This document shows, in pieces, positions 35,049-52,864 of a stretch of DNA of 64,000 nt. This DNA comes from Candidatus Parcubacteria bacterium (GTDB lineage Bacteria; Patescibacteriota; Minisyncoccia; Phycocordibacterales; JAKAEA01), in contig CAWDXL010000002.1 in assembly GCA_963806325.1 (NCBI GenBank), forward strand, positions 128,802 through 192,801. Direction: 5' to 3'. A program made the position numbers and the translations under genes. The stretch's first letter is position 1, and each line of letters begins with the position of its first letter. Below the pieces are notes generated by a model, which searched no databases, had not been told where the DNA came from, and saw nothing but the letters and a program-made list of their open reading frames with translations.

Positions 35049-35456
35049 TTATTTTATCATTTTTAGGATGTTTTTATATCCGTCTTTTTCAACAATATTC
35101 CACGCATTACTATAATCATTGGTGCAATGTTTTTTGCACCGCGCTTTATTTATTCCAACATATTCTGGTTTGTCTATAATCTCACGCCATACATATTCAA
35201 GCATAGCGTGAATAGCAATATGGACTCGCGTCTCAACGTTTTCTTCTTTGTATTTTTCCATAAAGTCATCGGTAAAATTGCCTCCTGAAAGATGCATCAA
35301 TTCATGCGTGAATGTGATGATAAATTCATCAACAGAAAGTGATACAGGAATCACCATTCCAAATGCTTCAGTACGGTTGATAACCCATACAATATTTACA
35401 TTTACTATAGAATATGGAAACGGGCGTTTAACAATAGATTCTATTGCTCTAAACAC
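35049..35456 (-). CDS. small HExxH-motif protein (putative zinc metallopeptidase-like)
   Basis: 'ITFTHELMHLSGG'. No other recognisable domain. Confidence 0.4.
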   Translation of the reverse strand: MFRAIESIVKRPFPYSIVNVNIVWVINRTEAFGMVIPVSLSVDEFIITFTHELMHLSGGNFTDDFMEKYKEENVETRVHIAIHAMLEYVWREIIDKPEYVGINKARCKKHCTNDYSNAWNIVEKDGYKNILKMIK

Positions 35457-35643
35457 TTTCTGACTGATGGGTTCCCACGCCTGCCGGTATTCCCTCAGTT
35501 TTTTCGATACAATAAATTGATCTGTCTCTCGCCTTGCCCTTTCTTTGTATTTAGACAGTGTCAGGGATAAACTTTTGTTATTTCATCTAAAATTTTGTTG
35601 TAGCGGATTATGGTTTTTGTCATGATTATAACTTAAAAATAAA

Positions 35644-36024
35644 TTATTCAGCCCTCCTCCAGATTTTCATGTACCACAGCAGCGGAGTGAATAAAAAAAT
35701 GAAAGTCATAAAGGCAATATACGCGGATTTTTGAGCGATGTTAAATGTCACGACAAGATACGCGAGCGTCGTCATCACCTGAACGGTAAATGTAAAAACT
35801 CCAATTTTTGCCGGTAAAAATCTATAAATAAGTCCGTACCATAGCAGGATTGATATGATAAAAATAATTTTAAATAAATTCATTGAGATCGAAATCAAAT
35901 AGAGGGATATAAAAATGCAAAATTCTGAAGCCACAGCAAGTCCGAGCATTGTGTTGGTCCATGTCAGCAGGCGGTTTTTTGTCCAATATTTTTTATTCAT
36001 GCGAAAATAATAAACCGAATGCAA
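35644..36024 (-). CDS. small polytopic membrane protein
   Basis: 126 aa with 3-4 TM helices. It overlaps the upstream small membrane ORF by 32 nt and is probably co-transcribed with it. Confidence 0.45.
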   Translation of the reverse strand: MHSVYYFRMNKKYWTKNRLLTWTNTMLGLAVASEFCIFISLYLISISMNLFKIIFIISILLWYGLIYRFLPAKIGVFTFTVQVMTTLAYLVVTFNIAQKSAYIAFMTFIFLFTPLLWYMKIWRRAE

Positions 36025-36280
36025 AAGCGAGTACGCCTGCTATCATCAAAAATATGCTAAGAGACCCGACAATTATCATTATGGGAATTCCTAGCGCAGT
36101 TTCCCAGCTAAAGCCGATAATATCTTCTTTTTCAACACTCATTTCTTTATTAAATAAATTTTTTATACCTCGTATAACATAAAGAAAAGGCGCGACAAAA
36201 ATAAGGAAGAGGAAGTAACAAATGTCCCAAAATATTTCTTCGATATCTTTCATTTTTTTTGGTGAGACATTCATATCCAC
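35993..36280 (-). CDS. small membrane protein (2 TM)
   Basis: 95 aa. It is the first gene downstream of operator site 1 and has an AGGTGG RBS. Confidence 0.45.
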   Translation of the reverse strand: MDMNVSPKKMKDIEEIFWDICYFLFLIFVAPFLYVIRGIKNLFNKEMSVEKEDIIGFSWETALGIPIMIIVGSLSIFLMIAGVLAFAFGLLFSHE

Positions 36281-36305
36281 CTATATGACATTAGCCATGT
36301 TAAAA

Positions 36306-36328
36306 ATGTTGTCTATATCTGACAACAA
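36306..36328. promoter_or_regulatory. palindromic operator site 1 (aTGTTGTC-tatatct-GACAACAA) with -35/-10-like promoter on minus strand
   Basis: Perfect 8-bp inverted repeat with a 7-bp AT spacer. On the minus strand it is preceded by TTGACT-N17-TTTTAT. It lies ~27 nt upstream of the ORF start at 36280. Confidence 0.6.
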
Positions 36329-36495
36329 TAAAATAATACTGACGCGGGCTAGTCAAATACTGTTAATAAACAGTAACAAAATTAGTCTTTTGATATAGAT
36401 ATTGTATTGAGGATTGTTAATACAGTTAAACGCTCGTTATTTATTAACAATCTTTAATTGAAATTCCTGTTGAATAGATTTAACAAATTTTATTA

Positions 36496-37404
36496 CTACT
36501 CCCCATGAGGTTTTATGTTTGGTAACTTTTCGCCATTCTTAACATATCTATCAAACCAATCAATCGTAGCTATATTACTTTCTTTTCTAAATTCTGTTAG
36601 GTTGTGATCAGCACCTTCATACATGATTAAGTGATATGGGATTTTGTATCTGAGTAATTTTTGTGCAAGTTCCAGCGAATCTAGGGGATTGACTCTCCAA
36701 TCTGCTGCCCCGTGCATTATAAGGATGGGTGTCTTTTTTGTCATCTTGTCTGCCCAATATAATGCTGATCGTTTTTTTAGTTCTTTGAGAGAACCTCCAA
36801 ACATTTTCTTAAAAACGCTCTTCATTTCTGGCCTTTCTTTTGATTGCCTTATTAAGTTTGTTGGACCAGCAATAGCAACAGCTGCTTTTAACCATTTTAC
36901 TTTTGCAAGTATGATAAATATCATCATTGCACCTCTGCTTGCTCCGTACATACCAATTCTTTTTGTATTAGCTCGAGAATATAGTCTTAAAATTTTATAC
37001 AGACTTACAATATCTTCAATATCTGATCCCCCATGTTCATCCTTCCCTTCTCCTCCCGCATTGCCCGAATATTGTGTAGTAATAGCGATGTATCCATTTT
37101 CAGCGAGACGTCCGATCATTCGAGTGAAAAGGTGTTCATCTTCTATTTTCCCAAAATTATTTGAACCTCCTCGGTTGTATATAATGCAGGGTAGTTCTTT
37201 TCCTTCGCGGGGTTCTACTATATACCCCACTACTTTGTGCCCTTGGGATTTATATATGATTTTATATGCAAATATTTTCTCACTCCTTTTTTGAGCAACA
37301 TCCTGTACTTTTTCGTCATACCTTCTTACCATCTCACGATTAAAATGAATCCCCTCGATATTTAAAATAAAAGAAATTTTTGATAGTTGATCAATGTTGG
37401 ACAT
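36496..37404 (-). CDS. alpha/beta-hydrolase (S9 peptidase / dienelactone-hydrolase-like)
   Basis: GxSxG 'MYGASRGAM', 'IMHGAADWRVNP', and 'GADHNL'. Confidence 0.7.
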   Translation of the reverse strand: MSNIDQLSKISFILNIEGIHFNREMVRRYDEKVQDVAQKRSEKIFAYKIIYKSQGHKVVGYIVEPREGKELPCIIYNRGGSNNFGKIEDEHLFTRMIGRLAENGYIAITTQYSGNAGGEGKDEHGGSDIEDIVSLYKILRLYSRANTKRIGMYGASRGAMMIFIILAKVKWLKAAVAIAGPTNLIRQSKERPEMKSVFKKMFGGSLKELKKRSALYWADKMTKKTPILIMHGAADWRVNPLDSLELAQKLLRYKIPYHLIMYEGADHNLTEFRKESNIATIDWFDRYVKNGEKLPNIKPHGE

Positions 37405-37446
37405 AAGGTAATTATAATTATTTTTTTATAAAAATCATACCCTGAG

Positions 37447-37992
37447 CTACAAAGAGTTCAGGGTATGAGCAGATATTATCTGCTGAGGAGAGTTACGAGC
37501 AGGCATCTCCACCATTGCAATCCGGCTTGGGGCGCATGATTGATCACAGTCGCCCTTACCGAGTTGGTGATAATTCCAATTCTCGCCAAGGTTGTCGCCG
37601 AGATGTTCCGCGATCAGTGCATGTGTACGATTGCGCAGTTCGCCACCGTCTGGCTTGTCTTCTGGTCGCCGAGGTCGGTGATGAAGAAAGTAGCCGAAGT
37701 ACTTATGGCAGAACTTTTGATAGTCCATCGTAAAAAGGATGAACGTGTGCCACCCTTCATCAATGCGAGTTGACGGTACAACTCTCCCAAACTTGCCGGC
37801 GAGCCACAAAAACTTGAGCGTGTCCTTAAATAAAGACACGGCCTGAGTTTCTGAAATGCTCAATTCCTGTGCAATGCGGGTGACAACGGCATTGTTATTG
37901 TATGCCATTACTCGCCCAAGGGATGGAAACTTACGGACCTTTGTGGTTGCTGACGTGTGGGCAACCTTACCACTGCGGTGACGGATGGTCAT
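37447..37992 (-). CDS. hypothetical protein (conserved 'IDEGWHTFIL ... HHRP' region)
   Basis: 181-aa ORF immediately downstream of operator site 2. Confidence 0.4.
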   Translation of the reverse strand: MTIRHRSGKVAHTSATTKVRKFPSLGRVMAYNNNAVVTRIAQELSISETQAVSLFKDTLKFLWLAGKFGRVVPSTRIDEGWHTFILFTMDYQKFCHKYFGYFLHHRPRRPEDKPDGGELRNRTHALIAEHLGDNLGENWNYHQLGKGDCDQSCAPSRIAMVEMPARNSPQQIISAHTLNSL

Positions 37993-38067
37993 GTGCCATC
38001 TCCTAAAAACAAAGTCAGAGAGAAAACCTCTCTGTAACTTCTATACATGAGAGTATCTGTATTAAAA

Positions 38068-38090
38068 TTGTTGTCTATATCTGACAACAA
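38068..38090. promoter_or_regulatory. palindromic operator site 2 (TTGTTGTC-tatatct-GACAACAA)
   Basis: Perfect palindrome. The minus-strand TTGACT-N17-CTTTAT sits upstream, ~75 nt before the ATG at 37992. Confidence 0.6.
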
Positions 38091-38250
38091 TAAAGTAATA
38101 TTGACTAACACCAGTCAAATGCTGTTGTGAAGGCACAACAGAAACCAGTGTTTGAATAAGGACCGTTTTGAAAACTGTTTGATTATACAAACACTAAAAA
38201 AGCAAGATAAAATATTTATAAAAAATCTTGTTGGAAGTCTCGAACAAATC

Positions 38251-39858
38251 CTAAGAAGTCTTGACCGGTATCTCGATATAAAATTGTGAGCCGGTGTTTG
38301 CACCTTCCGATTCTGCCCAGACGCGGCCGCTCATCGATTCAATCATGTTGCGGGCAATGTAGAGGCCGAGGCCGGTGCCAAGAATATTGGTCTCGTTGGC
38401 ATTTTCAGCCCGGCTAAATTTTTGGAAGAGCTTCGGCATGGTAGTAGCAGGAATGCCGACGCCGGTGTCAGAAATCTTGATGATGCTCTTGCCCGACTGC
38501 TCGGATATCGACACATTCACTTTAATATTGCCGTGAGGAGTATATTTGATAGAGTTGTCGAGAATGTTGCCGATGACCTGCTTCACCTTTCCTTTGTCGG
38601 CGTGGACCATATAATTTTTGTTCTGCTCAAATGTAAATTCGAGTGCAAGCCCGCGCTTCTCCACATTGGGCCGATATTCGCTTATCACTTCTTCCGCCAG
38701 CTTTTCAATATCAAAATCTGAATAGTCATATTTCATCTTGCCGCCTTCAATGCGCGACACATCAAGAAAATCACCAACGATGGTCACGAGATTGTTGGTC
38801 GAACTCATAATAATAGTAAGGGCCTGTGCAATCTCGGGTGAAACGGGACCATAATCCCCTTCTTGTACGAGAGAGATGTAGCCTTTTATGGCTGTAAGCG
38901 GCGCACGGATCTGGTGCGTAGCGAGCGAGACGAATTCATTTTTTAGAGCATCGAGCTCTTTTAGGCGCTCATTGGCAAACTCAATCTTAAACATGTCCCC
39001 GACCATGCGGATGCTAAAGATGAGGACAAGGATAAAGACACTGATGCGGAAGATGACAAGAGAGAGCGTGTTGGCAAAAATAATTTCGATAAAGCTGGTT
39101 ACGGTGAGAGCAAAAGCAAAGGTGAACGTCGTAATATTTTTTATGTTGAAAAGCTTGTGCCTATAGATTGCATAAGCTGTAAAAGCGATAAAAGGAAAAA
39201 TAAAAACGGCACCGAGGGGGATAAAATTATATAGGTTAAAGAATGCTGGGAGTAAGAAGTTTAATATAATTACTAAAGAGAAAGTTAAAATAATACCTAT
39301 TAAAACAATTTTAAACTGTCCTTTTTCTGTACCATGAGCCTGTATTGTTTTTTTAACAAACAAATATATTCCATAGCCCACAAGATACAAGACGAGAATA
39401 GCAAAAGGAATAATTCCCCAGCCTTCATTTACTCGCGCAACTGTACCAATAGTTACGCCTCCATCAATACTTTTAAAAATTGCAGGGGTAAGAGCAGAAA
39501 GTGATATTAAGATGCTTAAGGGTGTAAGTATGGTTTTATAGAACTTGGGGAAAAGTACTTCGGATCGTGGAAATACATATAAAAGTTGAAATAGTGTAAA
39601 AGCAAACCATACCGAAGAGAACATAAGTAGTCTTAGAAATGCTAAAACAATCTGAGGAGAATCTGATTGATAGTTTAGGTAATTAAAAGTACTCCAAAAA
39701 GATACCGCTACGGCTAAATACAGAAAAGATTTATTTGTTATATTTTTTCTGTTACTAAAATAAACTGCGACCCCCAAAATAAGAATAGCGGCAATCGAAA
39801 TGCCGACAGAAAGAAGAATCAAGATTCTGAAAAGGTAAGCTACCAAAAAAATTTTCAA
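38251..39858 (-). CDS. sensor histidine kinase (multi-TM sensor, HisKA + HATPase_c); no cognate response regulator nearby
   Basis: About 7 TM helices, an H-box 'LATHQIRAPLTAIKGY', an N-box 'NILDNSIKYT', and a G-box 'GTGLGLYIARNM'. Confidence 0.85.
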   Translation of the reverse strand: MKIFLVAYLFRILILLSVGISIAAILILGVAVYFSNRKNITNKSFLYLAVAVSFWSTFNYLNYQSDSPQIVLAFLRLLMFSSVWFAFTLFQLLYVFPRSEVLFPKFYKTILTPLSILISLSALTPAIFKSIDGGVTIGTVARVNEGWGIIPFAILVLYLVGYGIYLFVKKTIQAHGTEKGQFKIVLIGIILTFSLVIILNFLLPAFFNLYNFIPLGAVFIFPFIAFTAYAIYRHKLFNIKNITTFTFAFALTVTSFIEIIFANTLSLVIFRISVFILVLIFSIRMVGDMFKIEFANERLKELDALKNEFVSLATHQIRAPLTAIKGYISLVQEGDYGPVSPEIAQALTIIMSSTNNLVTIVGDFLDVSRIEGGKMKYDYSDFDIEKLAEEVISEYRPNVEKRGLALEFTFEQNKNYMVHADKGKVKQVIGNILDNSIKYTPHGNIKVNVSISEQSGKSIIKISDTGVGIPATTMPKLFQKFSRAENANETNILGTGLGLYIARNMIESMSGRVWAESEGANTGSQFYIEIPVKTS

Positions 39859-39867
39859 GTTGTCCTC

Positions 39868-40824
39868 CTAGCATGCCTTCTTAATTAAAAGGTATTGACC
39901 TGTTTGAGTATAGAATTTTACTTTTCCTTTGCATTTTTCTGCATACTGCAAAATATCCTTTTTTCTTAAAAATCTAAAATTTGAAAAAAGTTCAGCATTT
40001 AAGAAATGTGGATGGTTCCAACCCACAATGGTTTGTGGAATAATAACCATCCAGCTCCTAAAACCATCGTACTCAAAAATATTCTCCGTGATATTATTTA
40101 TCACAGCATCAAATTTTGGTTGCAATGTTAATGGTAGATGGTGTTTGAAAAGCGAGTGATAGATTATGTTAAAATATTTTTTGGGAAAAAATTTATCAAG
40201 ATTAAAAATATCATTTTTACATAAAATAAGTACCACCTTTTTTTGAGATGTTCTTTTTATAGATTCAACCTTAGTCTCATCTAAATTTTCTACCTCGTAA
40301 AAGTCTATCTTGTCAAAAATACCCTTAAGATTGTCTTTTGCAATTACTTGAGTTGTGGGTGATTTATCAACCGCAATCATAACAATCTTATGTTTAAAGT
40401 TAGAGGAAAGTATTTTTTTAATTATCTGATGATCAAGTTCCATGCCACCTGCACCAAGGTCAGCCATTACCACATCACTATTCTGTGAAAAAATAAAATT
40501 TGTTATTGTCTCAACAATAGGTTTAACAAGACCAGGTCTATCCTTTTCTTGCATCTCAATAAGTCTTTTATGCATCAACACATCCCACTCCTCCACTGGA
40601 AAATCAGTGAGTTCCAAGAGCTTTAAGCTATCGAGCTTAGGAGCCCGGAAAAAAAGCCACTTGAGATACGTCGGAAAATTTTTGATAGCCTTAAGAAAGG
40701 CAATATTCTCTTCTATTGCATACATTTCATCTTTATACTCAGGATTTTTCTTAAACGACTCCAATTTTTCAAGAGCACTTTTAATCTCGATATCTCGTGT
40801 GTTTTGCATATTATTTGTATTCAA
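39868..40824 (-). CDS. class I SAM-dependent methyltransferase
   Basis: Motif I 'VVMADLGAGGMEL'. It overlaps the upstream nitroreductase gene by 14 nt, which suggests an operon. Confidence 0.65.
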   Translation of the reverse strand: MNTNNMQNTRDIEIKSALEKLESFKKNPEYKDEMYAIEENIAFLKAIKNFPTYLKWLFFRAPKLDSLKLLELTDFPVEEWDVLMHKRLIEMQEKDRPGLVKPIVETITNFIFSQNSDVVMADLGAGGMELDHQIIKKILSSNFKHKIVMIAVDKSPTTQVIAKDNLKGIFDKIDFYEVENLDETKVESIKRTSQKKVVLILCKNDIFNLDKFFPKKYFNIIYHSLFKHHLPLTLQPKFDAVINNITENIFEYDGFRSWMVIIPQTIVGWNHPHFLNAELFSNFRFLRKKDILQYAEKCKGKVKFYTQTGQYLLIKKAC

Positions 40825-41863
40825 TCTGTGGCTCCATTCTCATTGCTCGTGCCGATGGGGCATCAGCATAGCCGAGGCGCATAAGCATGGGGATTTTCTT
40901 TCCTTGCACACCGAACGTATCCTCGATGGCATGATAGGCCTCATCTATTGCCTTCAGATGCTCTTTAGAAAAAGAAGCCGTGTCTCCTCCATCTATTCTC
41001 AGTTTAAAATAAAGCACGCCCGTGCATGGGTGTATGCTAAGGCCAAGTTTTGTAGCGGTGAGCCATACCCGCTCGACGGCCCTGCCTGCATTTATATAAT
41101 CTTTGTCGGTGCTTGCTTGTATTACGATCACGCCGAGTGCGGCAGATTTTGCATACTTCTCAGCATTTTCTTTTTCAATAGCTTTTGAGACTCCAGCAAT
41201 ATTAAAAATTTTCAAAATAGCCCAGCTTTTAAAAATTTTTACAGCTTTAAGCTGATGAGGTAAAAATTCGAGCGTCTTGATATAGAATCCCCCGGCTTTA
41301 TACTGCTCATTTTCATTCCATAAAATATGATTATAGAAAAAGGTGTGGAGAGCTTTATTCTCAAAAATGATCCGCTCATTGAGAGCAATTGCCTTCCCTG
41401 CTTTATCAAGAGACGGCTGATCATCAATAATTTTAAATTCACCAAATCCAGTACCTCTTGCATTTTCTATGAGTGCCTTTTTTTGATCATTATTAAGTTT
41501 GACGGGAGTATTTTCTTTTCTGTTGGTGCCGCGCAACGGTATCACCTGATACAAATCATCCTCTTTGATCGCTGATTTTTCCAAAGTCACTACCGAAACA
41601 AGATTTTTAATATTCTTATCGGGCAATACAGCTACGCTTGCTCTATATCCAAAGTGCGAAGCGCTGATAACAATATTTTCTATCAGGGCTCCGTGTGCTA
41701 CAAGGGAGCCTTTTTGCTCAAAATTGTACAGAGACTGATCTGCTTCCGGAATAATAAAAATAGAAATTTTGTTGCCCTCTACAATAAACTTCCATGGCTG
41801 GCAATTTTCTCCCGACGGAGCTTTGACACCATCGGTTATTATTTTTTGGATGTCATTGTTCAT
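40811..41863 (-). CDS. nitroreductase-fold FMN oxidoreductase, two-lobed/tandem architecture
   Basis: 'APSGENCQPWKF' at the N-terminus, with a second nitroreductase-like half ('AALGVIVIQAS...AGRAVERVWLTATKLGL'). Total length 350 aa. Confidence 0.65.
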   Translation of the reverse strand: MNNDIQKIITDGVKAPSGENCQPWKFIVEGNKISIFIIPEADQSLYNFEQKGSLVAHGALIENIVISASHFGYRASVAVLPDKNIKNLVSVVTLEKSAIKEDDLYQVIPLRGTNRKENTPVKLNNDQKKALIENARGTGFGEFKIIDDQPSLDKAGKAIALNERIIFENKALHTFFYNHILWNENEQYKAGGFYIKTLEFLPHQLKAVKIFKSWAILKIFNIAGVSKAIEKENAEKYAKSAALGVIVIQASTDKDYINAGRAVERVWLTATKLGLSIHPCTGVLYFKLRIDGGDTASFSKEHLKAIDEAYHAIEDTFGVQGKKIPMLMRLGYADAPSARAMRMEPQIEYK

Positions 41864-41942
41864 ATTAATGAATTATAGCAGAGTGCATTTTAATTGCGAA
41901 GACCTTCGGGTGCACAGAGTGGTGACTTGCTTTTTATTAACT

Positions 41943-41965
41943 ATGTTGTTAGTGTTAAACAACAA
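41943..41965. promoter_or_regulatory. variant palindromic operator (aTGTTGTT-agtgtta-AACAACAA) in divergent promoter region
   Basis: The TGTTGT-N9-ACAACA core is shared with the other five sites. It lies between the trmB-like gene (+) and the nitroreductase operon (-). Confidence 0.45.
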
Positions 41966-41990
41966 TATATTTAGAAGCTAATTTTATCTT

Positions 41991-42767
41991 ATGCTTGTAA
42001 AAGACCTTATAGAATTTGGACTTAATGAAAAAGAAGCAAAGGCTTATCTTGCTCTGCTCGAGCTTGAAGTGGCGGGCGTGCAGGAGATTTCTAAAGCAGC
42101 CGGTATCAATAGAAGCTCGGCGTATATTACCCTTGAGGCACTCAAGGAGCGTGGACTCGTCAGTATTTCTGATGACAAAAAAGTGCGAAGATATGTAGCT
42201 ACGTCTCCCGATGCAATTCTTAGAACTGCAGAAGATATGGTCGCCAAGCAAGAACGTATTCAGAAAAAAATATCAGCGATGATTCCGGAGATGAAAGCTT
42301 TATATAAGGGAGTGAAAAAGAAACCAATAATACAAGTGTATGAGGGTAAACAAGGACTTATAAATTGTTTTGAAGAAACTCTTAAAAACAAAGAAAAATT
42401 GATGAGAGTGTGGTCTGCTCCAGCAAATTTAGGAAGGATTATTTATGAATATTTGCCTGGGTATATTAGCAAAAGACTTGGTCTGGGAATAAAAATGATC
42501 GGTATCCACCCAGATAATGGAATACATAAGAAAATGGCACATGATATTAGTCAGGCTCCTGATGAAAACTTACTCATACCATCGGATAAATACAATTTTA
42601 CTGCCGACCTGGCAATCTATGATGATAAAATTAGCTACATGTCTAGTGAGAACGATGGGCTAGCTGTTATTATTGAAAGCAAAGAAATATCTGAGGTTAT
42701 GAAAAGCATTTTTGATCTTGCGTGGGAGGAGGCGAAAAGGTTGAGCAAGGGTGAGAAGAAATCATGA
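41991..42767 (+). CDS. TrmB-family transcriptional regulator
   Basis: N-terminal wHTH 'FGLNEKEAKAYLALLELEVAGVQEISKAAGINRSSAYITLEALKERGLV', plus a C-terminal effector-domain-like region. Confidence 0.75.
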   Translation: MLVKDLIEFGLNEKEAKAYLALLELEVAGVQEISKAAGINRSSAYITLEALKERGLVSISDDKKVRRYVATSPDAILRTAEDMVAKQERIQKKISAMIPEMKALYKGVKKKPIIQVYEGKQGLINCFEETLKNKEKLMRVWSAPANLGRIIYEYLPGYISKRLGLGIKMIGIHPDNGIHKKMAHDISQAPDENLLIPSDKYNFTADLAIYDDKISYMSSENDGLAVIIESKEISEVMKSIFDLAWEEAKRLSKGEKKS

Positions 42768-42903: not shown

Positions 42904-43752
42904 TTATAATGCAGATATAAATCTTAGAAAATTTCGACTCTCAGTTTCGGGTAGTAGACTGCCTAGCTTTGTATTTGGAGTATATGTAGCACCATGCCAA
43001 TCACTTCCACCAGTTATGACTAAATTATATTTTTTTGCAAGCTTTTCTAGAGTATTTATCTGCTCTGGAGTATGTGAAGGATAATATACTTCAATACCCT
43101 GTAGTCCGCACAACACAAGTTCACTAATGAAGTTTTCATAATTTTCTTCGATCCAAGCCTCTCATAAATTCTGCCCGAATGTGCAATGACCACAATCCCG
43201 CCGTTTTTCTTTATGAGATCTATAACAGTCTTTGGATTAAACATCCACGAATCGTCTTCCTCAACAAATACATATTGTTTAAGGGCATCTTTGATTGTGA
43301 TTTTTTGTTTTAAAAAAAGACATACTAAGCGTGCAAGTGTGTTTCTTGTAATATATTGTTCGTGATGTTTATTATATATATTCTTCAAAATTTAGGTTTA
43401 TTCCCGGTAGCTCTCTGTTTATTTTTTCGATAATTTTTTTAGCTCGGATATTATATCCATCAATGACCGGTTTCAAGGCACTATTTATCTCGAGATTAAA
43501 TTTCTTAGAATATCCGAGCATGTGTATTGATATATTCCTTTTTTTATCGATACATGAAATTTCTATACCATCTACAAAGTATACATTGATCGCTTTTGCA
43601 TCGCGCTTGATATCCTGTACTTTAGGACTAATATAATTATGATCTACGACTGAAAAAAGTGATATACCACTTTCTTTGATTTTAGAAAGTACATATTTAG
43701 GGGAATGCTCTCCGTCTGAATAGTATGAGTGAATGTGAAGATCTGTTTTCAT
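42904..43752 (-). pseudogene. PHP-domain phosphoesterase split across three reading frames
   Basis: 43372..43752 carries 'DLHIHSYYSDG'. 43056..43388 carries 'GGIVVIAHSGR'. 42904..43116 carries 'GIEVYYPSH...ITGGSDWHG'. All three are collinear with one PHP protein. Confidence 0.6.
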
Positions 43753-43779
43753 ATTTTAATTATTATAACAAATAAAATA

Positions 43780-43803
43780 TCCGCTGATAGGTTTCTCAGC
43801 GGA
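43780..43803 (-). terminator. rho-independent terminator after nucleotidyltransferase gene
   Basis: tccgctga-taggtttc-tcagcgga. On the minus strand the stem is followed by ATTTTATTTGTT. Confidence 0.5.
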
Positions 43804-43811
43804 CAATATTT

Positions 43812-44582
43812 TTAGTAGGTCAGAGACTTGCATATTTCCTCATAGGAACCTTTGAATTCATCTCCTTTAAGAACTAAATTTACAACATTTTCATACCACG
43901 TCATTAAGCTTAGTGCCTTCTGAAAATTTAAACCTTTCTTACAAGATAAAAGAAATGGTTCGGCCGGGAGTGAATTAACGCCATATACATTATCAAACAA
44001 TTTCTGCGCCAGTCTAATGTTAGATGGTGAACAGTAATAATTCTTGCGAAGTAAACACGAATTATAAGTTAGGGCATTTCCGATGCCATGTAAGAGTTTG
44101 CTCACATAGATTCTCCCAGATTCTCCTTCAAGTGATCTGATAAGCTGTCTTCTGCATATTGTCCTATTGTCGTACAAAACATACCCAGCCAGATCTTTGA
44201 AATCAAATTTTGTCTGATCATCAGTGGTTGATCTTAGATAAAAATTTCCTTTTAGAGAATTGCCGAACACCAGCGATGGGTTGTAACGTGGATACCATAG
44301 AGGTGACCCAATATCTTCAACCTCATCCTGAGTATGAGGCACAAGATCAATGTCACATTTCCATTTTGAAACCAGCATTTCCCGATGTTTTTTTAATGAA
44401 ATGTACACTGACCTATCAACAATCCCAGAACTACTTGGAACAATAATTGCGATATCAACATCAACTGATGTCTCATCATAGTACCAAGAGCCATACGCCA
44501 ATGCTGAAATTACCTCATCGACATTCCTTAGATAGTCAGCAATCCCAACCCAATAAGTACGTCCTCTTTTTTCACAAGTCAA
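43812..44582 (-). CDS. nucleotidyltransferase-fold protein (Pol-beta-like NTase superfamily)
   Basis: 'ALAYGSWYYDETSVDVDIAIIV' gives the G[GS]...DxD signature. The start codon appears to be TTG. Confidence 0.5.
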   Translation of the reverse strand: MTCEKRGRTYWVGIADYLRNVDEVISALAYGSWYYDETSVDVDIAIIVPSSSGIVDRSVYISLKKHREMLVSKWKCDIDLVPHTQDEVEDIGSPLWYPRYNPSLVFGNSLKGNFYLRSTTDDQTKFDFKDLAGYVLYDNRTICRRQLIRSLEGESGRIYVSKLLHGIGNALTYNSCLLRKNYYCSPSNIRLAQKLFDNVYGVNSLPAEPFLLSCKKGLNFQKALSLMTWYENVVNLVLKGDEFKGSYEEICKSLTY

Positions 44583-44667
44583 ACCTTTCTGTAAAAATTT
44601 TACCTACAAGGTAAAATTTAAATGTATAGAACTTAAAAACTCTAAAATTAGAATAATCTTTGTATAA

Positions 44668-44690
44668 TTGTTGTCTATATATAACAACAA
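44668..44690. promoter_or_regulatory. palindromic operator site 3 (TTGTTGTC-tatatat-AACAACAA)
   Basis: Minus-strand TTGACA-N17-TTATTT lies upstream. The site is ~86 nt before the start at 44582. Confidence 0.55.
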
Positions 44691-44857
44691 AAATAAAATA
44701 TTATCATTATATATGTCAAAAGTTGTTTAAATGTTTAAACAGTAAATTTCGCTGCGACATAAGGTAGTTCCACTAAGTTGTTGATCAGTATCAACATTCA
44801 TTTTTAGAATGTACTCTAATTCAAAATAAGTCGTTCTTAGGATCAAACAAAACACAG

Positions 44858-45325
44858 TTACCTCTTATACATCTCCTCTAAAATAAAGAATACGAGCTGG
44901 CATGTGCTGCAGTGGTTGAGATTTTTGTCCGATAAAATAAAATTCCGCATCTTGGTGTCGTTTGAAAGTGCGAGGTACATTTTTCTTAGAAGCTCTTTAT
45001 CACACTGCTCGAGCTTATTGTACAAGCTTTCTGCTTCACTGAAAGCAAACTTGTGTTTGTATTTGCTGCACACTATTTTTTTAACTTTTTCCAGAAGATG
45101 TTCCCTTTCGATTGTTGCCAAAAGATAATTTCCCATCTCGCACGGAGTTATCCTTTCTCGCCAGTCAGCTTCCGGAAAACTTATTTCAAACTGGTCAAAA
45201 AGCTCAAGCAAATCTTTTTTACAGATGACTGATCTTGCTAAAACTATCTCAAGCCATCTAAATTCGAGTTCGGTGTAACCATTCCAGATATCTGTCAACT
45301 CCTGTATTTCAGTAGGCATATACAA
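44858..45325 (-). CDS. hypothetical protein
   Basis: 155-aa ORF immediately downstream of operator-like site 5. Confidence 0.4.
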   Translation of the reverse strand: MYMPTEIQELTDIWNGYTELEFRWLEIVLARSVICKKDLLELFDQFEISFPEADWRERITPCEMGNYLLATIEREHLLEKVKKIVCSKYKHKFAFSEAESLYNKLEQCDKELLRKMYLALSNDTKMRNFILSDKNLNHCSTCQLVFFILEEMYKR

Positions 45326-45346
45326 GGAAGCTTAGTATTCTGTTTT

Positions 45347-45369
45347 TTGTTGTCAAAGCACAACAGTAT
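45347..45369. promoter_or_regulatory. degenerate operator-like site 5 (TTGTTGTC-aaagcac-AACAGtat) plus conserved upstream module
   Basis: The left half is perfect. Roughly 120 bp of flanking sequence are shared with the module upstream of the rSAM gene (tgtcaaaagctgtt..., a(g/t)c(g/t)gtttatttttag). Confidence 0.4.
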
Positions 45370-45555
45370 TTATTATATTCCCGTGAAAATATGTCAAAAG
45401 CTGTTTAAGTGCCAAAACATCCAGTCTTGTGCAATATAGCTAAAAATCAGCGGTTTATTTTTAGTTTATAACAGCTAAATAAAGGAGTTTATTGATTTAA
45501 ATTTTATTTTGTTATGTTATACAAACACTCTCCATGAATATTCATTTTGCCAAGT

Positions 45556-45885
45556 CTATTCGATATCTCTCTTTTTGGTAAAAAATCCCTGCCGAAGGCG
45601 AAAAGCTATTCGTCTGTCGTGATGAACAATAGGCATACCAATCACTTGTTTGCATGTGGCGCATGTGAGCGGCGCAATATTTTTAGGATCTGTAGACCCT
45701 CTATCATATTGCAATTTCTCAAAATTTTCTGGTCCAAATATCCGATTAAGATAGCAACGCTTCAGTTTTCCATCACTATCTTTTTGATAATGAAGCAGTT
45801 CAGCACCACACAGACAAAAAAGCCTGATCATGAATGCTTTTCCGCCACGTATCTTGCGGTACTTGTCGTTTTTCATTTTCACCAT
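45556..45885 (-). CDS. small zinc-ribbon protein (CxxC...CxxC), function unknown
   Basis: 'FCLCGAELL ... LTCATCKQV'. It is the last gene of the rSAM-peptide-peptidase unit. Confidence 0.4.
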   Translation of the reverse strand: MVKMKNDKYRKIRGGKAFMIRLFCLCGAELLHYQKDSDGKLKRCYLNRIFGPENFEKLQYDRGSTDPKNIAPLTCATCKQVIGMPIVHHDRRIAFRLRQGFFTKKRDIE

Positions 45886-45945
45886 AAAACCAATATCTTA
45901 TAGAGGTAGGGTGTTGAAATTTAATCTTTCAATTTCTTAAATTAC

Positions 45946-46578: not shown

Positions 46579-46608
46579 GTTTGTAGTTAAATTGTAGCAT
46601 AAAATAAA

Positions 46609-46639
46609 AGGAGAGGTCGGGGTTTAATCCGCCTCTCCT
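46609..46639 (-). terminator. hairpin (attenuator/partial terminator) immediately after the Cys-rich peptide ORF
   Basis: aggagagg-N16-cctctcct, followed on the minus strand by TTTATTTTATG. Confidence 0.35.
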
Positions 46640-46645
46640 GTCGTT

Positions 46646-46777
46646 CTACTTATCACAGTCACTGGCGCAGTCACATGAGACACAGTCGTAGCAGGCACCG
46701 TTGTCACACGACAGACTTTGTGTGCCAGTCCGTACTTCCGTCTCCACAAGAGACACGAAACCATCTTCTTGCTGCAT
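46646..46777 (-). CDS. 43-aa Cys/Asp-rich putative RiPP precursor peptide (MQQEDGFVSLVETEVRTGTQSLSCDNGACYDCVSCDCASDCDK)
   Basis: Absent from the ORF track because it is under 60 aa. It has a strong RBS (GGAGGTG-N9-ATG). The core carries 6 Cys and 5 Asp in its C-terminal 20 aa. It lies 42 nt downstream of the rSAM/SPASM gene. Confidence 0.6.
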   Translation of the reverse strand: MQQEDGFVSLVETEVRTGTQSLSCDNGACYDCVSCDCASDCDK

Positions 46778-46819
46778 GATAATTATCACCTCCTTTCTAT
46801 TTGAATGTACTATTAATTT

Positions 46820-48133: not shown

Positions 48134-48206
48134 GAATGACTCCTGTGCTTTTGGCACATAAAACAATTGTCAAAAAACTCTATTTTTGATAGTAATACCA
48201 TTAAAA

Positions 48207-48229
48207 TTGTTGTCTATATCCAACAACAA
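48207..48229. promoter_or_regulatory. palindromic operator site 4 (TTGTTGTC-tatatcc-AACAACAA)
   Basis: Minus-strand TTGACA-N17-TTTTAT lies upstream. The site is ~75 nt before the rSAM ATG (48133). Confidence 0.55.
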
Positions 48230-48947: not shown

Positions 48948-50129
48948 CTATAATCCGAAAATTTTCTTAAAATTATCAGCGACTTCTTTGCGGTGAGCCA
49001 CTTGCTCCGGAGTATTGTAATGCGGATTCAATATGCTATCCATAACGATAAGAGAGCGGTTTGATTCAAGCGGCTGTTTGTTTAAGATTCTGCGTACACA
49101 GTATGCAACAGCGGCACCATTGACGAGTGCTGCACCGCCAAGCTGCGGCCACGAAACAATCGTTTTCCCCATTTCCATGAGCGATTGCTGCATGCGCTCA
49201 GTGACATTTTCTGGTCCGACATGCTGAGTAATTGTTTTGCCGATGCCAAATTTATCAAGCTTGCTCAATGATTCATAGGTCACCCCAGGAAGCCTGCCTT
49301 GGAAAAATGGGGTGTTTCGATCGAGATCGTATCGTTCAACATCAACGACCGCATTGTCACCGTTGTCTGCAGCCATGACAATTGGCACACGGTGTTTCTT
49401 GGCATTTTCGCGAATGAGAAATTTTACGGCAAGATTGTCGAGTTCATCAATCATGACATCAAGCCCTTTGACAAAGGTATCAACATTGTCAGGCTGAATA
49501 CCGTCAGGAAATGTTTCCACAACGGCGTAAGGATTGATTTCATAAATAAATCGGGCAGCCATATTCACTTTAAGCACTCCGAGATTGTCGACGCCGGAAA
49601 GAATCCTATTTGTATTTGAAAGCGCGAGGCGATCCATGTCGGCGAGCTTCATGTGCTTTGCTCCGCCTTGAAGCGCAAGAGCAAACGCTACACTCGATCC
49701 GACACTCAGTCCACCAATGCCAACGGTGGCGTTATAAAATTTGTCCTGCTCTTCCTGATTGATAAGGTTTCTGTTGCGGGCTGTGCGCACCATCTGAAAA
49801 TCAGCTTCCGGCAAAACATGAGTCAATTTTGAAATCCACGGGAAAAATACCCACAAGCCATGCTGCCAGAGAGGCTGGATTTTCTGCAAATTTTCATAAA
49901 ATGCTTTAAATTCCTGCCTGTACGTCGGGGTATATACTTTTGTCGGATTTTTGACGCCAAAAAGCTCAAGCTGCTCTTCTTCATAATCGTCAACAATGTG
50001 CTGAATGCTGCCATTATCAAAAAGCTTACTTACCGCAGCCCTGTCTTTCTCGTCTGAGAGATTAAAAAGAACAGGCTTTGATGAAATGTCTCTATTTGCT
50101 TCCTGCGTCAATTTTTTGGCAAGGTCCAT
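48948..50129 (-). CDS. ThiF/MoeB-family E1-like adenylyltransferase with ~120-aa N-terminal extension
   Basis: Rossmann motif 'NATVGIGGLSVGSSVAFALALQGG' and 'DVMIDELDNLAVKFLIRENAKKHRVPIVMAADNG'. Confidence 0.65.
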   Translation of the reverse strand: MDLAKKLTQEANRDISSKPVLFNLSDEKDRAAVSKLFDNGSIQHIVDDYEEEQLELFGVKNPTKVYTPTYRQEFKAFYENLQKIQPLWQHGLWVFFPWISKLTHVLPEADFQMVRTARNRNLINQEEQDKFYNATVGIGGLSVGSSVAFALALQGGAKHMKLADMDRLALSNTNRILSGVDNLGVLKVNMAARFIYEINPYAVVETFPDGIQPDNVDTFVKGLDVMIDELDNLAVKFLIRENAKKHRVPIVMAADNGDNAVVDVERYDLDRNTPFFQGRLPGVTYESLSKLDKFGIGKTITQHVGPENVTERMQQSLMEMGKTIVSWPQLGGAALVNGAAVAYCVRRILNKQPLESNRSLIVMDSILNPHYNTPEQVAHRKEVADNFKKIFGL

Positions 50130-50252: not shown

Positions 50253-51239
50253 TTGGAGGATATTATGAGTCTGTTCGTTGATATGATGGCATTTCCGCAA
50301 CGGCAAACGATGCCTATGTTCTTCGGTGCCGACTTCCCGCGGCCGGCTATTGTCTTCTGCACGGCCGCACCCCCTCTCATCACTTCTTCGGAAGAAATTC
50401 TCGTTGAGGTCAGAAAAACACTGCAGACGCTTAAGGCGCAGCCTGGCGTTACAGTCGTGCGCAAAGCTGCAGACATCACAGACCTCTCAAACGGTATCAA
50501 GGTTGTGCTCGGCCTTCAACATCCCCCACTGGATGCTACTCCCGCGGTCATGATCAGTCTTCGGAAGCTTGGTATCCGCTTCATGACTATCGCGTACAAA
50601 GGTGAAAATATTTATGGAGGCGGATTTCTTAGCAATAAGAGCCTCACAGCTGCCGGCAGCAAATTTCTTCAGATGCTCCAGGAGGCCGGAATGTGGATGG
50701 ATTTCTCCCATATCGGGCATGCCACGGCGCGCGACATTCTTAAAGAATACAAGTATATCCGCTTCCCGATTCTGGCCACCCACACAGGTGCGTACAAAGT
50801 GTACGACAATCCCCGCAATCTTCCCGTGGACATCCTTGAAGGCATTGTGCGACATCATGGTGTTGTGGGTCTATACACCCTCACCTTCGGACTTGACGCA
50901 AGCGACAATTCCCTCGAACCGTTTCGGAGGCATCTGATGCATCTTTTACAGGTGTGCGGCGAAAACTCTGTGGCTATCGGCACTGATGGAATCTATGAGA
51001 CAATGACAGTCGCGGCGCAGCGCGCTCAATTCGAACTCATGAACAAACATGTTGATACCGATGGTCGGATGCGTTCGCGTCATCCTGTCGAACCTCTCCC
51101 GTTAAACGGTGCCAACAAGGATATCGTCCTTCGTGGATATCTGGCCGACTGGCTGGGAGCTTCCGCTGCACATTCCGAAGATCTTGTGAACTGTGTCATG
51201 TTTGGAAACGCCCTCAATTTTTTGCGGGCAAATCTTTGA
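50253..51239 (+). CDS. membrane-dipeptidase-like (peptidase M19) protein
   Basis: 'VVLGLQHPP', 'LGIRFMTIAY', and 'GMWMDFSHIGHATARD'. GC content is clearly higher than in the flanking genes. Confidence 0.6.
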   Translation: MEDIMSLFVDMMAFPQRQTMPMFFGADFPRPAIVFCTAAPPLITSSEEILVEVRKTLQTLKAQPGVTVVRKAADITDLSNGIKVVLGLQHPPLDATPAVMISLRKLGIRFMTIAYKGENIYGGGFLSNKSLTAAGSKFLQMLQEAGMWMDFSHIGHATARDILKEYKYIRFPILATHTGAYKVYDNPRNLPVDILEGIVRHHGVVGLYTLTFGLDASDNSLEPFRRHLMHLLQVCGENSVAIGTDGIYETMTVAAQRAQFELMNKHVDTDGRMRSRHPVEPLPLNGANKDIVLRGYLADWLGASAAHSEDLVNCVMFGNALNFLRANL

Positions 51240-51313: not shown

Positions 51314-52864
51314 TTATTTCTTGACCCATTTCTGCTTGGTGCCGAGGCCAAAGTGTGTCGGATCGCCATGCGGCCAAAAGACGATGCGGGGATCAACACG
51401 TCCCGGGAGCATATGCGCATTATTTTTATGTTCAGCGCTTTTTTCAAGCAGAGACTCTGAAATTTTGTTTTGTACTTCCGATTTGAGCCAGTCTGACTCT
51501 ATAATCCCCTGCTTTAATTCCACATTAATGCTGAGAAACTCATTCTGATCGCTGTCATGCTCGGTCGACATTGTGAATTTTCCGGTTATATATTTATCAA
51601 TGCTCGGATGCTGGAGACCTCCTTTGATATATTCAGGGAAAATAATGGCGCCATAGAGCTTTGTAGAAAGATCTGTACGTTCGTACACATACACGAAAGG
51701 CAACTCAGCAATGGTGTCTTCAATACCCGCCTCATGTGCCTTTTTGCGAAGATCAAAACCTTCTTCCTTAAAAATATTTTCGACATCATTAAAATCCATT
51801 ACGCCGCCGTTGTCGCCGATTTCGTAGCGCAGGAGCGGCAGGGCATTGCTTCCGCTGCAGTAGACTTTGCCGTCTATTTCTTCAAAATTGATGAAGTGAG
51901 GATTAAATTGGGCAAACGTTGGCAACCGATTAGCCTCTTTAAAAAGCTTTGTATAGAGATTTTTATGCTTGAGTGCCAGACGACGGATAAAAATGCTGAG
52001 AGGAGTTTCCTGCGCCATGGTGCCAAGATCGGCGCTGCCATAGACATTCATTGTGTCGCGCAGTACATTTTTAATACCGGTCTTCTCCAAAATGTATTCG
52101 CGGAATTTTTCTGAAAATCCTTCAGCGGCAAAAATTATTTTAAGATTATAATTGTGCCAGAACACCCCATGATCTTCTCCTTCATCGATCACGTCTTTCA
52201 TAAATGGTGGATAGCCACAGAGAATGACCTGATCAAATTTGCCGCCGATATTTTTAAGCGCCTCGTAAATTTCTTTTTTGTTGACGCCTGGTGTAAGAAT
52301 AGTAAGCGGATATCCGCGCTCAGAAATTGTTTTAAAAGCTTCGTATGTAATGACACCGCCAATCCAGACACCCATGCCAAAACATACAAGCACGAGCGTC
52401 GATTTTTCCTTATCAATATTGCTTGTCTTTAAAAACATTTCATGACAAATGGACGATTGCCAGTCAAGAATACTGTTGCGAGGAAAATAAAATGGCGCAC
52501 CGGTGGAGCCTGACGTTGACGTAAATACAAGCGATTGCGTAAGCGTTCCCTGCATACAGAGTTCTTCTAATAGATACTGCCGAAGATAATTTGCCTTATT
52601 CATAATAGGAACTTTCTTGAAATCTTCATATGTTTTTATCTTTACTGGATTGATGCCGTGAGTCTTAAGAAATGGTTTGTAAGCCGGAACTTTGTCTACG
52701 CAAATGTTAAAAAGCCGCACAAGCTGTGCCTCGCGTTCAGCTTTCCAAAAATCACCTTTTTTTGAATAGATAAATCGTAGAAAATCAAGCGGTCGGGCAA
52801 GCTGCGATTTTGTCCGCTTTGATCCAGTCTTCAATGCTGTTTTTTTTGAAATTGCTTTTGCCAT
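51314..52864 (-). CDS. adenylate-forming enzyme, phenylacetate-CoA ligase (PaaK)/CapK-like family
   Basis: AMP-binding motif 'TSGSTGAPFYF', 'YGSADLG', and a C-terminal PaaK-like domain. Confidence 0.65.
   Translation of the reverse strand: MAKAISKKTALKTGSKRTKSQLARPLDFLRFIYSKKGDFWKAEREAQLVRLFNICVDKVPAYKPFLKTHGINPVKIKTYEDFKKVPIMNKANYLRQYLLEELCMQGTLTQSLVFTSTSGSTGAPFYFPRNSILDWQSSICHEMFLKTSNIDKEKSTLVLVCFGMGVWIGGVITYEAFKTISERGYPLTILTPGVNKKEIYEALKNIGGKFDQVILCGYPPFMKDVIDEGEDHGVFWHNYNLKIIFAAEGFSEKFREYILEKTGIKNVLRDTMNVYGSADLGTMAQETPLSIFIRRLALKHKNLYTKLFKEANRLPTFAQFNPHFINFEEIDGKVYCSGSNALPLLRYEIGDNGGVMDFNDVENIFKEEGFDLRKKAHEAGIEDTIAELPFVYVYERTDLSTKLYGAIIFPEYIKGGLQHPSIDKYITGKFTMSTEHDSDQNEFLSINVELKQGIIESDWLKSEVQNKISESLLEKSAEHKNNAHMLPGRVDPRIVFWPHGDPTHFGLGTKQKWVKK

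Follow-up and report, generated by a model that had tools for sequence, protein, structure and literature searches.

The 64,000-nucleotide stretch of contig CAWDXL010000002.1 from a Candidatus Parcubacteria bacterium that was analyzed here (positions 128,802 to 192,801, referred to as the window) contains three co-directional minus-strand genes. They encode a flavin-dependent oxidase (FDO) belonging to the nitroreductase superfamily (350 aa), a methyltransferase dependent on S-adenosylmethionine (SAM; 318 aa) and a sensor histidine kinase (535 aa), and they are arranged divergently from a plus-strand gene for a TrmB-family regulator (258 aa; Table 1). Our scan for open reading frames (ORFs) reproduced the coordinates and the tight packing of the three genes opposite the TrmB-like gene that had been given in a preliminary description of this region. 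The stop codon of the oxidase gene occupies positions 40811-40813, and the methyltransferase gene begins either with TTG at 40824, which results in an overlap of 14 nt with the oxidase gene, or with ATG at 40809, which leaves a gap of 1 nt and corresponds to the 313-aa form present in the protein collection. The methyltransferase gene ends at 39868 and is separated by 9 nt from the kinase gene, which starts with TTG at 39858. A palindrome, TGTTGT-N9-ACAACA, occurs exactly five times in the 64 kb; all of its copies are intergenic and lie within 12 kb. A ThiF-like cyclase and a PaaK-like ligase are encoded on the same strand as the three genes.

Table 1. Features of the window, with positions counted from its first nucleotide.
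Feature	Position	Strand	Characteristics
Predicted operator	36307..36327	.	After TTGACT-N17-TTTTAT; upstream of small membrane-protein genes 35993-36280 and 35644-36024
Predicted operator	38069..38089	.	After TTGACT-N17-CTTTAT; upstream of 181-aa gene 37447-37992, just 3' of kinase gene
Sensor histidine kinase	38251..39858	-	PF16927 HisKA_7TM residues 21-239, HisKA 306-373, HATPase_c 421-533
Class-I SAM-dependent methyltransferase	39868..40824	-	~115-aa N-terminal helical extension; mostly Patescibacteria-restricted family (fold, alignment)
Flavin-dependent oxidase	40811..41863	-	Single-chain tandem Acg-type fold, corresponding to C-terminal half of Rv1355c/TrzS (NCBIfam, model, Foldseek)
Promoter-like element of the oxidase-methyltransferase-kinase operon	41872..41900	-	TTCGCA-17-TATAAT with TG extension (TGCTATAAT)
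Predicted operator, divergent oxidase/TrmB region	41944..41964	.	TGTTGT-TAGTGTTAA-ACAACA; 26 nt upstream of TrmB ATG
TrmB-family transcription regulator	41991..42767	+	Winged helix-turn-helix and coiled coil; PF01978 residues 8-73, E 1.7e-17
Predicted operator	44669..44689	.	After TTGACA-N18-TATTTT; upstream of nucleotidyltransferase-like gene 43812-44582
Predicted operator	48208..48228	.	After TTGACA-N17-TTTTAT; upstream of radical SAM/SPASM gene 46820-48166
ThiF-like ATP-dependent cyclase	48948..50129	-	Corresponding to N-terminal half of Rv1355c/TrzS (NCBIfam Rv1355c family, PF00899)
M19 membrane dipeptidase	50253..51239	+	Between ligase and ThiF-like genes; PF01244 E 1.6e-35
PaaK/F390-synthetase-like adenylate-forming ligase	51314..52864	-	First gene of conserved cluster; NCBIfam PaaK 5e-10, FlxY 4e-07; PDB PaaK 2y4o 2.6e-4

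With regard to the oxidase, a Pfam Nitroreductase protein (PF00881), the best sequence matches were obtained with the models PRK14851 (E = 2e-63) and Rv1355c family (E = 7e-60, positions 376-713 of 722), and the Acg family came next (E = 9e-38). Its predicted structure (pLDDT, the predicted local distance difference test score, 91.7) had the Acg homologue 2YMV as top match in Foldseek (E = 8.9e-14, TM 0.70/0.74), while other nitroreductase structures covered only one lobe (TMq ~0.35, E of at least 2e-5) and were weaker than 2YMV by more than eight orders of magnitude. The earlier characterization of the protein as two-lobed was right in that its 350 residues form a single-chain tandem fold, as opposed to the homodimeric NfsA/NfsB nitroreductases with subunits of ~200-240 aa. 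The likeness to SagB/McbC-type dehydrogenases that had been proposed at the same time did not hold, as none of the SagB, McbC and BluB models matched even at E <= 10 and neither McbC nor SagB entries were found among the top 50 structural neighbors in the PDB. Nor is the protein of the type of the housekeeping NfsB enzymes, since NfsA/NfsB-type models matched only its first ~50 residues at E-values of 0.03-0.05. By sequence and predicted structure, the protein thus appears to belong to a third clade, neither SagB/McbC- nor NfsB-like, namely that of the Acg-type flavin-dependent oxidases. With its nitroreductase-superfamily flavin-dependent oxidase domain and Acg-like monomeric tandem fold, it exhibits the FDO-A-type feature of ThiF-FDO oxazolone synthetases.

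Such synthetases, in which a ThiF-like cyclase cooperates with an FDO, have been demonstrated experimentally in the form of TrzS, TyzBC and OxzB (PMC12856293; PMC10404671; bioRxiv 10.1101/2020.06.11.147165). TrzS (Rv1355c) converts N-acyl-tryptophan into N-acyl tryptazolones by ATP-dependent cyclization and subsequent O2-dependent desaturation, and Acg 2YMV is the closest solved structure to its FDO domain, too (PMC12856293). The substrate is an N-acylated aromatic amino acid whose carboxylate becomes adenylated before the oxazolone ring closes. Tyrazolones are made by TyzB and TyzC, which are encoded by separate genes, and by the fusion protein OxzB (PMC10404671; bioRxiv 10.1101/2020.06.11.147165). 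The ThiF-like protein of the window matches positions 4-349 of the 722 positions of the Rv1355c family model (E = 1.7e-96). Because this protein covers model positions 4-349 and the oxidase covers 376-713, the window is predicted to encode a split TrzS, with the ThiF-like gene and the oxidase gene as its halves ~7 kb apart. Among proteins of solved structure, TcdA is closest in sequence to the ThiF-like protein, and the motifs GxGGxGS, DxD..NxNR and IDxxD align between the two. TcdA, the tRNA t6A dehydratase active in ct6A formation, is another oxazolone-forming ThiF-like enzyme. In the window, the ThiF-like gene is part of a transcription unit separate from that of the oxidase gene and is followed by a terminator-like hairpin (48891-48923); in ~20 related loci it adjoins the FDO gene.

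The genomic surroundings of these genes were compared among 42 loci that were retrieved in a scan with the methyltransferase family alignment, considering one genome per species, and whose ORFs were analyzed by local BLAST and clustering. A co-directional order recurs in which a PaaK-like ligase (~515 aa) is followed by the ThiF-like cyclase, FDO, methyltransferase and a seven-transmembrane (7TM) histidine kinase; occasionally it is permuted (L005, L017, L022, L025, L031). FDO, methyltransferase and kinase are all present in ~25 Patescibacteria loci, the methyltransferase gene directly precedes the kinase gene in 26 of the 29 methyltransferase-bearing loci, and ligase and ThiF-like genes are found in 20 loci each. 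FDO and methyltransferase even constitute one polypeptide in L007, L016 and L019, the fusion having been confirmed for L007. The assumption of a single operon for the oxidase, methyltransferase and kinase genes is supported by this repeated order and by the fusions. Genes for TrpRS and AspRS often reside downstream of the cluster, and this is also the case in the window. A tyrosine ammonia-lyase gene (FlxA-like, E = 7e-186 for the copy of L018) occurs upstream of the ligase gene in five genomes, directly so in L018, L019, L024 and L031 and two genes upstream in L005; in these organisms, the acid activated by the ligase would probably be p-coumarate supplied by the lyase. No tyrosine ammonia-lyase was found in the window. 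A description of this cluster, or of an operator for a TrmB protein from Patescibacteria, was not found in the literature searched.

When the gene contexts of TrmB orthologues were looked up in nine further loci (L051-L059), ligase orthologues with 48-74% identity were encountered. Two of the loci (L056, L057) reproduce the layout of the window, i.e., ligase, ThiF-like gene, TrmB-like gene on the opposite strand, FDO and kinase, with ligase and ThiF-like proteins that are 73-79% identical to those of the window. In the window, the two halves of the cluster are separated by ~7 kb containing the radical-SAM operon, the TrmB-like gene and others. One inserted block (42904-48166) comprises a frameshifted PHP gene, a nucleotidyltransferase-like gene, a 155-aa gene and genes for an MA peptidase and a radical SAM protein, and another (35049-37992) a 181-aa gene and genes for an S9-peptidase and small membrane proteins. 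Copies of the palindrome mark the promoters of the inserted units. The oxidase-methyltransferase-kinase trio had been counted as part of an island; from the synteny of the cluster and the inserted blocks that interrupt the conserved arrangement, we conclude that the trio is part of a conserved core present in other genomes and not cargo of the island.

The methyltransferase of the window has no match in Pfam or NCBIfam, and a direct sequence search of the PDB with it returned nothing, so that a fold search was needed. Its model (pLDDT 95.8) had 248 matches among PDB chains (E <= 0.001). Every one of the best 50 was a class-I SAM methyltransferase, and C-methyltransferases from natural-product pathways together with CmoA ranked first (CurJ C-MT, CmoA, SgvM, CouO/NovO and Coq5), by which the original assignment as SAM methyltransferase is borne out. 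The protein displays the defining features of class I, namely a Rossmann-like seven-strand fold in which motif I is rich in glycine and motif II contains an acidic residue. PF08241 is recorded for only three of the 109 homologues in the family, and the organism names given for family members in the protein sources all belong to lineages of the Candidate Phyla Radiation (CPR)/Patescibacteria. In the family alignment, G124, G126, E129, D153, H228 and H229 are invariant and N204 is nearly so, and the motifs LGAGGME, DKS, NDIF and SLFKHHL are conserved. Its fusion to the FDO argues that the methyltransferase acts in the pathway of the oxidase. Distant homologues (26-29% identity) are present in Dehalococcoidales (L033-L042) in a different conserved neighborhood without adjacent oxidase; only two of these loci (L033, L034) have a kinase-like ORF, which is encoded by the opposite strand ~2 kb downstream.

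The kinase (HisKA PF00512, E = 3.3e-14; HATPase_c PF02518, E = 1.4e-24) consists of a seven-helix membrane domain that is directly joined to the dimerization and histidine phosphotransfer domain and the catalytic domain, without a periplasmic or cytoplasmic sensor domain. Because the membrane domain is the sole input domain, the kinase plausibly senses a hydrophobic molecule or the state of the membrane. A receiver (REC) hidden Markov model was built locally from CheY, PhoB, Spo0F and NarL and recognized four receivers in related loci at E-values of 1e-23 to 1e-28 as a control; with this model, no receiver domain was detected in any six-frame ORF of at least 50 aa in the window (best E = 0.46). 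The classification as orphan kinase holds within these 64 kb, and no Response_reg family is listed among the called genes of the nine related loci either. A stand-alone receiver gene is found beside the cluster only in L016 and L025.

On balance, we consider it probable that the cluster specifies an oxazolone-type small-molecule pathway, equipped with a methyltransferase for tailoring, a kinase that senses within the membrane and a TrmB-like protein as its dedicated regulator. In such a pathway, the ligase would activate a carboxylic acid and supply an N-acyl amino acid in place of an acyltransferase of the OxzA/TyzA/TrzA type, the ThiF-like cyclase would adenylate the carboxylate of the N-acyl amino acid and close the ring, and the FDO would desaturate the ring, which would result in an unsaturated oxazolone-type heterocycle. 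The methyltransferase would tailor substrate or product, and the kinase would respond to a hydrophobic ligand or to the membrane state and have a partner receiver encoded elsewhere.

Several observations weigh against this assignment. The ThiF-like protein and the oxidase score 324.1 and 203.1 bits, respectively, against the Rv1355c family, and each of these values is below the full-length cut-off of 476; their sum of 527 bits exceeds it, though the model has been built for the fusion protein. Cyclase and oxidase are encoded ~7 kb apart in the window, by genes that belong to different transcription units. An N-acyl amino acid synthase of the OxzA/TyzA/TrzA type is not found among the conserved cluster neighbors, where a PaaK-like ligase lies upstream instead, and there is no known precedent in any oxazolone pathway for a PaaK-like ligase making N-acyl amino acids. 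Furthermore, the methyltransferase is lacking from several related clusters, the operator at 41944 is nearer to the TrmB start than to the promoter of the oxidase operon, and two oxidase subtypes with only ~24% identity exist within otherwise orthologous clusters.

One of these oxidase subtypes is represented by L052, L055 and L056 and the other by the window and L057, in clusters with evident orthology of ligase, ThiF-like protein and kinase (54-79% identity in the case of L056). This pattern suggests that the oxidase has been exchanged as a cassette, either together with the methyltransferase or alone. A strict tie between oxidase subtype and presence of the methyltransferase was considered and rejected, as L057 contains an oxidase of the window type without methyltransferase, and L022, L024 and L025 contain divergent oxidases together with one. 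Because there are two oxidase subtypes and several clusters without methyltransferase, the product may differ between genomes.

Could the oxidase be an Acg-like flavin-sequestering or redox-stress nitroreductase that is controlled by the kinase in the way Acg is in the DosR regulon, with the ThiF-like cyclase and the ligase as mere neighbors? The match to the Acg family model, the identity of the best solved structure (2YMV) and the operon shared with a sensor kinase would all fit. We nevertheless consider such a function unlikely, because the oxidase scores much higher with the ThiF-fused TrzS/PRK14851 models than with the Acg family (203-214 vs. 131 bits), a ThiF-like partner that matches the other half of TrzS is conserved alongside it in ~20 genomes, and the fusion to the methyltransferase in three genomes points to a pathway enzyme.

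Alternatively, the cluster might modify a macromolecule, i.e., a tRNA nucleoside as in ct6A or the C-terminus of a protein or peptide, instead of a free small molecule. Such a role would be in line with the proximity of the ThiF-like protein to TcdA, with the frequent location of the cluster next to genes for TrpRS, AspRS or HisRS, and with the fact that proteins, peptides or tRNA are the substrates of most ThiF-like enzymes characterized so far (PMC12596934). We judge this role improbable, as the TcdA model is matched at E = 1.6e-14 only, compared to 1.7e-96 for the Rv1355c family, and as pairing or fusion with an FDO is a hallmark of small-molecule oxazolone synthetases (PMC10404671; PMC12856293). 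In addition, the variable tailoring genes of the clusters (SDR, NUDIX, other methyltransferases) and the tyrosine ammonia-lyase have the appearance of small-molecule chemistry.

A third explanation assigns the oxidase and the E1-like (ThiF-like) protein to the maturation of a ribosomally synthesized and post-translationally modified peptide (RiPP), in which a SagB/McbC-type azoline dehydrogenase would act together with the radical-SAM unit. Pairs of E1-like and nitroreductase-fold proteins do occur in thiazole/oxazole-modified peptide (TOMM) systems, the radical SAM/SPASM operon and the TrmB-like gene have the operator in common, and the radical-SAM gene of L058 is likewise placed under an operator. 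In our view, this explanation is very unlikely in light of the missing model and structural matches to SagB, McbC and BluB described above, including the lead of Acg by more than eight orders of magnitude. Moreover, Pfam annotation of the genes in the window region and in nine related loci revealed no YcaO protein, and clustering of ORFs of at least 70 aa revealed no conserved small precursor ORF, shorter ORFs not having been systematically screened. The radical-SAM gene is absent from related clusters, apart from a weak partial match in L007. The enzymatic connection to the radical-SAM unit that had been suspected is therefore not supported; the shared operator is the only link seen.

Concerning regulation of the cluster, the TrmB-like protein has 320 homologues at E <= 0.001, those listed being 49-68% identical. 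It lacks a second Pfam domain such as the sugar-binding effector domain of TrmB, its matches to TrmB/TrmBL1 in NCBIfam do not extend beyond residue ~140, and the C-terminal ~120 aa are without assignment. Pfam searches with the small ORFs of the island (95, 126, 135, 110, 70, 109, 155 and 181 aa) gave no matches and thus no second transcription factor at this level. In six of the nine loci mentioned above (L051, L052, L054, L055, L056, L057), the TrmB orthologue is embedded in the ligase/ThiF/FDO/kinase cluster, always in antisense orientation, and in L059 it adjoins a ligase homologue (48% identity).

The palindrome accompanies this regulator. When one mismatch is allowed, seven matches are found in the window vs. 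0.18 expected, and none of 100 shuffles reached seven. A recognizable operator is present within ~100 nt upstream of the start of eight of the nine TrmB orthologues (50-68% identity). Seven of the nine loci contain the exact form TGTTGT-N9-ACAACA, either at the TrmB start or not more than ~100 nt upstream of it, and mostly of the type that is also seen at 41944. This type, TGTTGTTAG...ACAACA, is found with the TrmB orthologues of L051, L052, L054, L055 and L059, and close variants of it with those of L053, L057 and L058. The spacing is N6 in L054, the variant of L057 reads TTGTTATA/TATAACAA, and the copy in L056 is degenerate. All 13 exact copies in these loci are intergenic or at the TrmB start, and additional copies lie in front of small ORFs, of a gene for a homologue of the Zn-ribbon protein from window ORF 45556-45885 and of a radical-SAM homologue. 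No exact operator was detected in ~500 kb of loci without a TrmB orthologue (the 42 methyltransferase-anchored loci), where only chance-like matches occur, and for this reason we regard the operator as tracking the TrmB orthologue and not the cluster as such. A metagenome scan for the strict operator (TTGTTGTCTATATNNNACAACAA) retrieved seven contigs without homology to the window, which are chance or unrelated matches and uninformative.

By this phylogenetic footprinting, the prediction that the TrmB-like protein binds the palindrome, as had been proposed, is well supported. Because the half-sites are conserved and the spacers are free across divergent TrmB proteins, the palindrome is best explained as a protein operator. 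That the copies are transcription terminators or mobile repeats is extremely improbable, even though the 36307 copy scored terminator-like on the minus strand and copies are embedded in a longer repeat of ~80 nt, since conserved TGTTGT/ACAACA arms with varying spacers next to TrmB proteins of 50-68% identity conform to a protein site and not to hairpin covariation, the copies precede genes, directly behind -35/-10-like boxes, and track the presence of the TrmB orthologue, and there is no match to an Rfam family. A spacer of ~7 nt had been quoted as typical of TrmB sites; among the sites described, this applies only to Halobacterium (TACT-N7-8-GAGTA), and others have N3 or N5 (PMC4158304).

The operator at 41944 had been described as a variant of the island operator; instead of being a degenerate copy, it represents the form that other genomes have upstream of their TrmB gene. 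It is located in the 127-bp divergent region, and because it is 26 nt from the TrmB ATG as compared to ~44 nt from the promoter-like element of the oxidase operon, we predict that it is primarily the regulator's own site, at which the TrmB-like protein would autoregulate. The remaining four copies, read on the minus strand, immediately follow TTGAC(A/T)-N17/18-(T/C)TTTAT-like boxes and overlap the likely transcription start. Through these copies just after the -10 elements, a position typical of repressors, the TrmB-like protein would control four accessory units including the radical-SAM operon. For the oxidase-methyltransferase-kinase operon, a separate conserved promoter of the extended -10 type is predicted at a distance of ~70 bp from the operator. 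This promoter-like element ends 8 nt before the ATG of the oxidase gene and is kept as TGCTATAAT/TGCTATACT 6-8 nt 5' of the orthologous oxidase ATG in the window, L056 and L057; transcription from it would yield a leaderless or near-leaderless mRNA. The operator is ~75-105 bp upstream of this ATG; control of the oxidase operon by the TrmB-like protein is possible.

In addition, a less strict inverted repeat (TGTT...AACAG) is present immediately 5' of the -35 boxes of all operator-bearing promoters as well as upstream of the 155-aa gene (38120-38140, 45345-45365, ~36345-36362, ~44720-44740 and ~48255-48275), and may serve the regulator as an accessory site. A terminator-like hairpin on the minus strand (38016-38034, CAGAGAGGTTTTCTCTCTG and a T-rich tail) follows the operator-bearing promoter at 38069, before the 181-aa gene begins at 37992, and could act as an attenuator or mark the end of a short transcript. 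The operator copy at 48208 is followed by minus-strand genes for the radical SAM/SPASM protein, the MA-family peptidase and the 109-aa Zn-ribbon protein (45556-48166). A radical-SAM homologue (27% identity) in L058 (4229-5449) is divergent from the TrmB orthologue with the operator in between. L059 encodes two Zn-ribbon homologues, one of which is arranged in the same manner. No precursor peptide was identified with the radical SAM/Zn-ribbon units. Glycine-rich ORFs of 53 and 34 aa are found on operator-bearing promoters divergent from the TrmB orthologues in L052 (3562-3723) and L055 (3622-3726), respectively, and may be peptides of the regulon.

These features can be extended to a self-contained chemical signaling circuit of the ultra-small, host-dependent CPR bacteria, in which a hydrophobic oxazolone-type autoinducer made by ligase, cyclase, oxidase and methyltransferase would be sensed in the membrane by the co-transcribed 7TM kinase, and the TrmB-like protein, possibly via its C-terminal domain, would provide the coupling to a variable accessory regulon of radical-SAM peptide maturases and small secreted or glycine-rich peptides. 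We put this forward as a tentative idea that is possible rather than probable. If true, the circuit would give oxazolones a signaling function and be the first candidate in Patescibacteria for a system that senses a quorum or a host.

Among the other genes of the window, the M19 dipeptidase gene has an equivalent position in L057 and resides beside the ligase gene in L055; the enzyme might supply or recycle the amino acid substrate. Several genes appear disrupted. The minus-strand gene for a PHP-domain phosphoesterase resembling 3',5'-nucleoside bisphosphate phosphatase (42904-43752) seems to be broken into three consecutive ORFs (126, 110 and 70 aa), of which the first and second are in different frames and a family match exists only for the first (NCBIfam, 5e-16); it is either a pseudogene or the result of an assembly indel artefact. 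The minus-strand gene for histidyl-tRNA synthetase (53043-54433) is split over three frames: in tblastn with the intact HisRS of L054, residues 10-141, 141-280 and 281-392 align in frames -1, -2 and -3. A split is also seen in the gene for an ABC transporter at 30535-32317, which is a single ORF of 585-594 aa in relatives. The occurrence of several frameshifts in one window suggests sequencing indels or gene decay. Both the Rfam and the tRNA scans of the window were empty.

Patescibacteria have very small genomes and little biosynthetic capacity, and the cluster ties oxazolone-type chemistry to signal-transduction genes in such minimal-genome organisms in a concrete and testable manner. The oxazolone synthetases OxzAB, TyzACB and TrzAS were discovered from 2020 to 2025, and with regard to the physiological role of the products, the authors speculate on signaling (PMC12856293). 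For TrmB-family regulators, which have been characterized almost entirely in archaea, a defined operator and regulon are now predicted in a bacterium; the regulator accompanies the cluster in one lineage.

The cluster, which resembles the oxazolone-lipid synthetases recently discovered in Mycobacterium tuberculosis, is homologous to ThiF-FDO oxazolone synthetases, lacks their acyltransferase partner and adds a methyltransferase, a kinase and a TrmB regulator that have not been reported together with them. With TrzS/Rv1355c, it has in common the almost end-to-end match of the ThiF-like and oxidase genes to both model halves, the Acg-like oxidase fold and the ATP-binding motifs; on the other hand, it differs by the presence of two separate genes ~7 kb apart, a PaaK-like ligase in place of a TrzA-type N-acyltransferase, the added methyltransferase, 7TM histidine kinase and TrmB-like regulator, and a host from the Patescibacteria instead of the Actinomycetota. 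TyzACB (Rv2336-Rv2338c) and OxzAB contain an equivalent enzyme pair, and cyclase and oxidase are encoded by separate adjacent genes in most related loci just as TyzB and TyzC are (PMC10404671; bioRxiv 10.1101/2020.06.11.147165), whereas the acyltransferase is missing here and gene order and accessory genes are different. The Acg family (Rv2032, Rv3131; PDB 2YMV) shares the single-chain tandem nitroreductase fold and provides the best structural match; however, the oxidase of the window scores higher with ThiF-associated FDO models and has a ThiF-like cyclase as partner in place of a DosR-regulon context. SagB and McbC from TOMM or linear azole-containing peptide (LAP) systems also belong to the nitroreductase superfamily and perform oxidation dependent on flavin mononucleotide next to an E1-like protein, but lack model matches and structural proximity to the oxidase, and neither YcaO nor a precursor peptide was seen here. 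Finally, the archaeal regulators TrmB, TrmBL1, Tgr and VNG1451C resemble the TrmB-like protein in their N-terminal winged helix-turn-helix and coiled coil as well as in the palindromic site at or near promoters, and autoregulation has been reported for members of the family (PMC4158304). In contrast to them, the regulator described here resides in a bacterial (CPR) host, has no detected sugar-binding effector domain, is predicted to have targets outside sugar metabolism and is associated with TGTTGT/ACAACA half-sites spaced by N9, as compared to TACT-N3-AGTA, TATCAC-N5-GTGATA and TACT-N7-8-GAGTA in archaea (PMC4158304).

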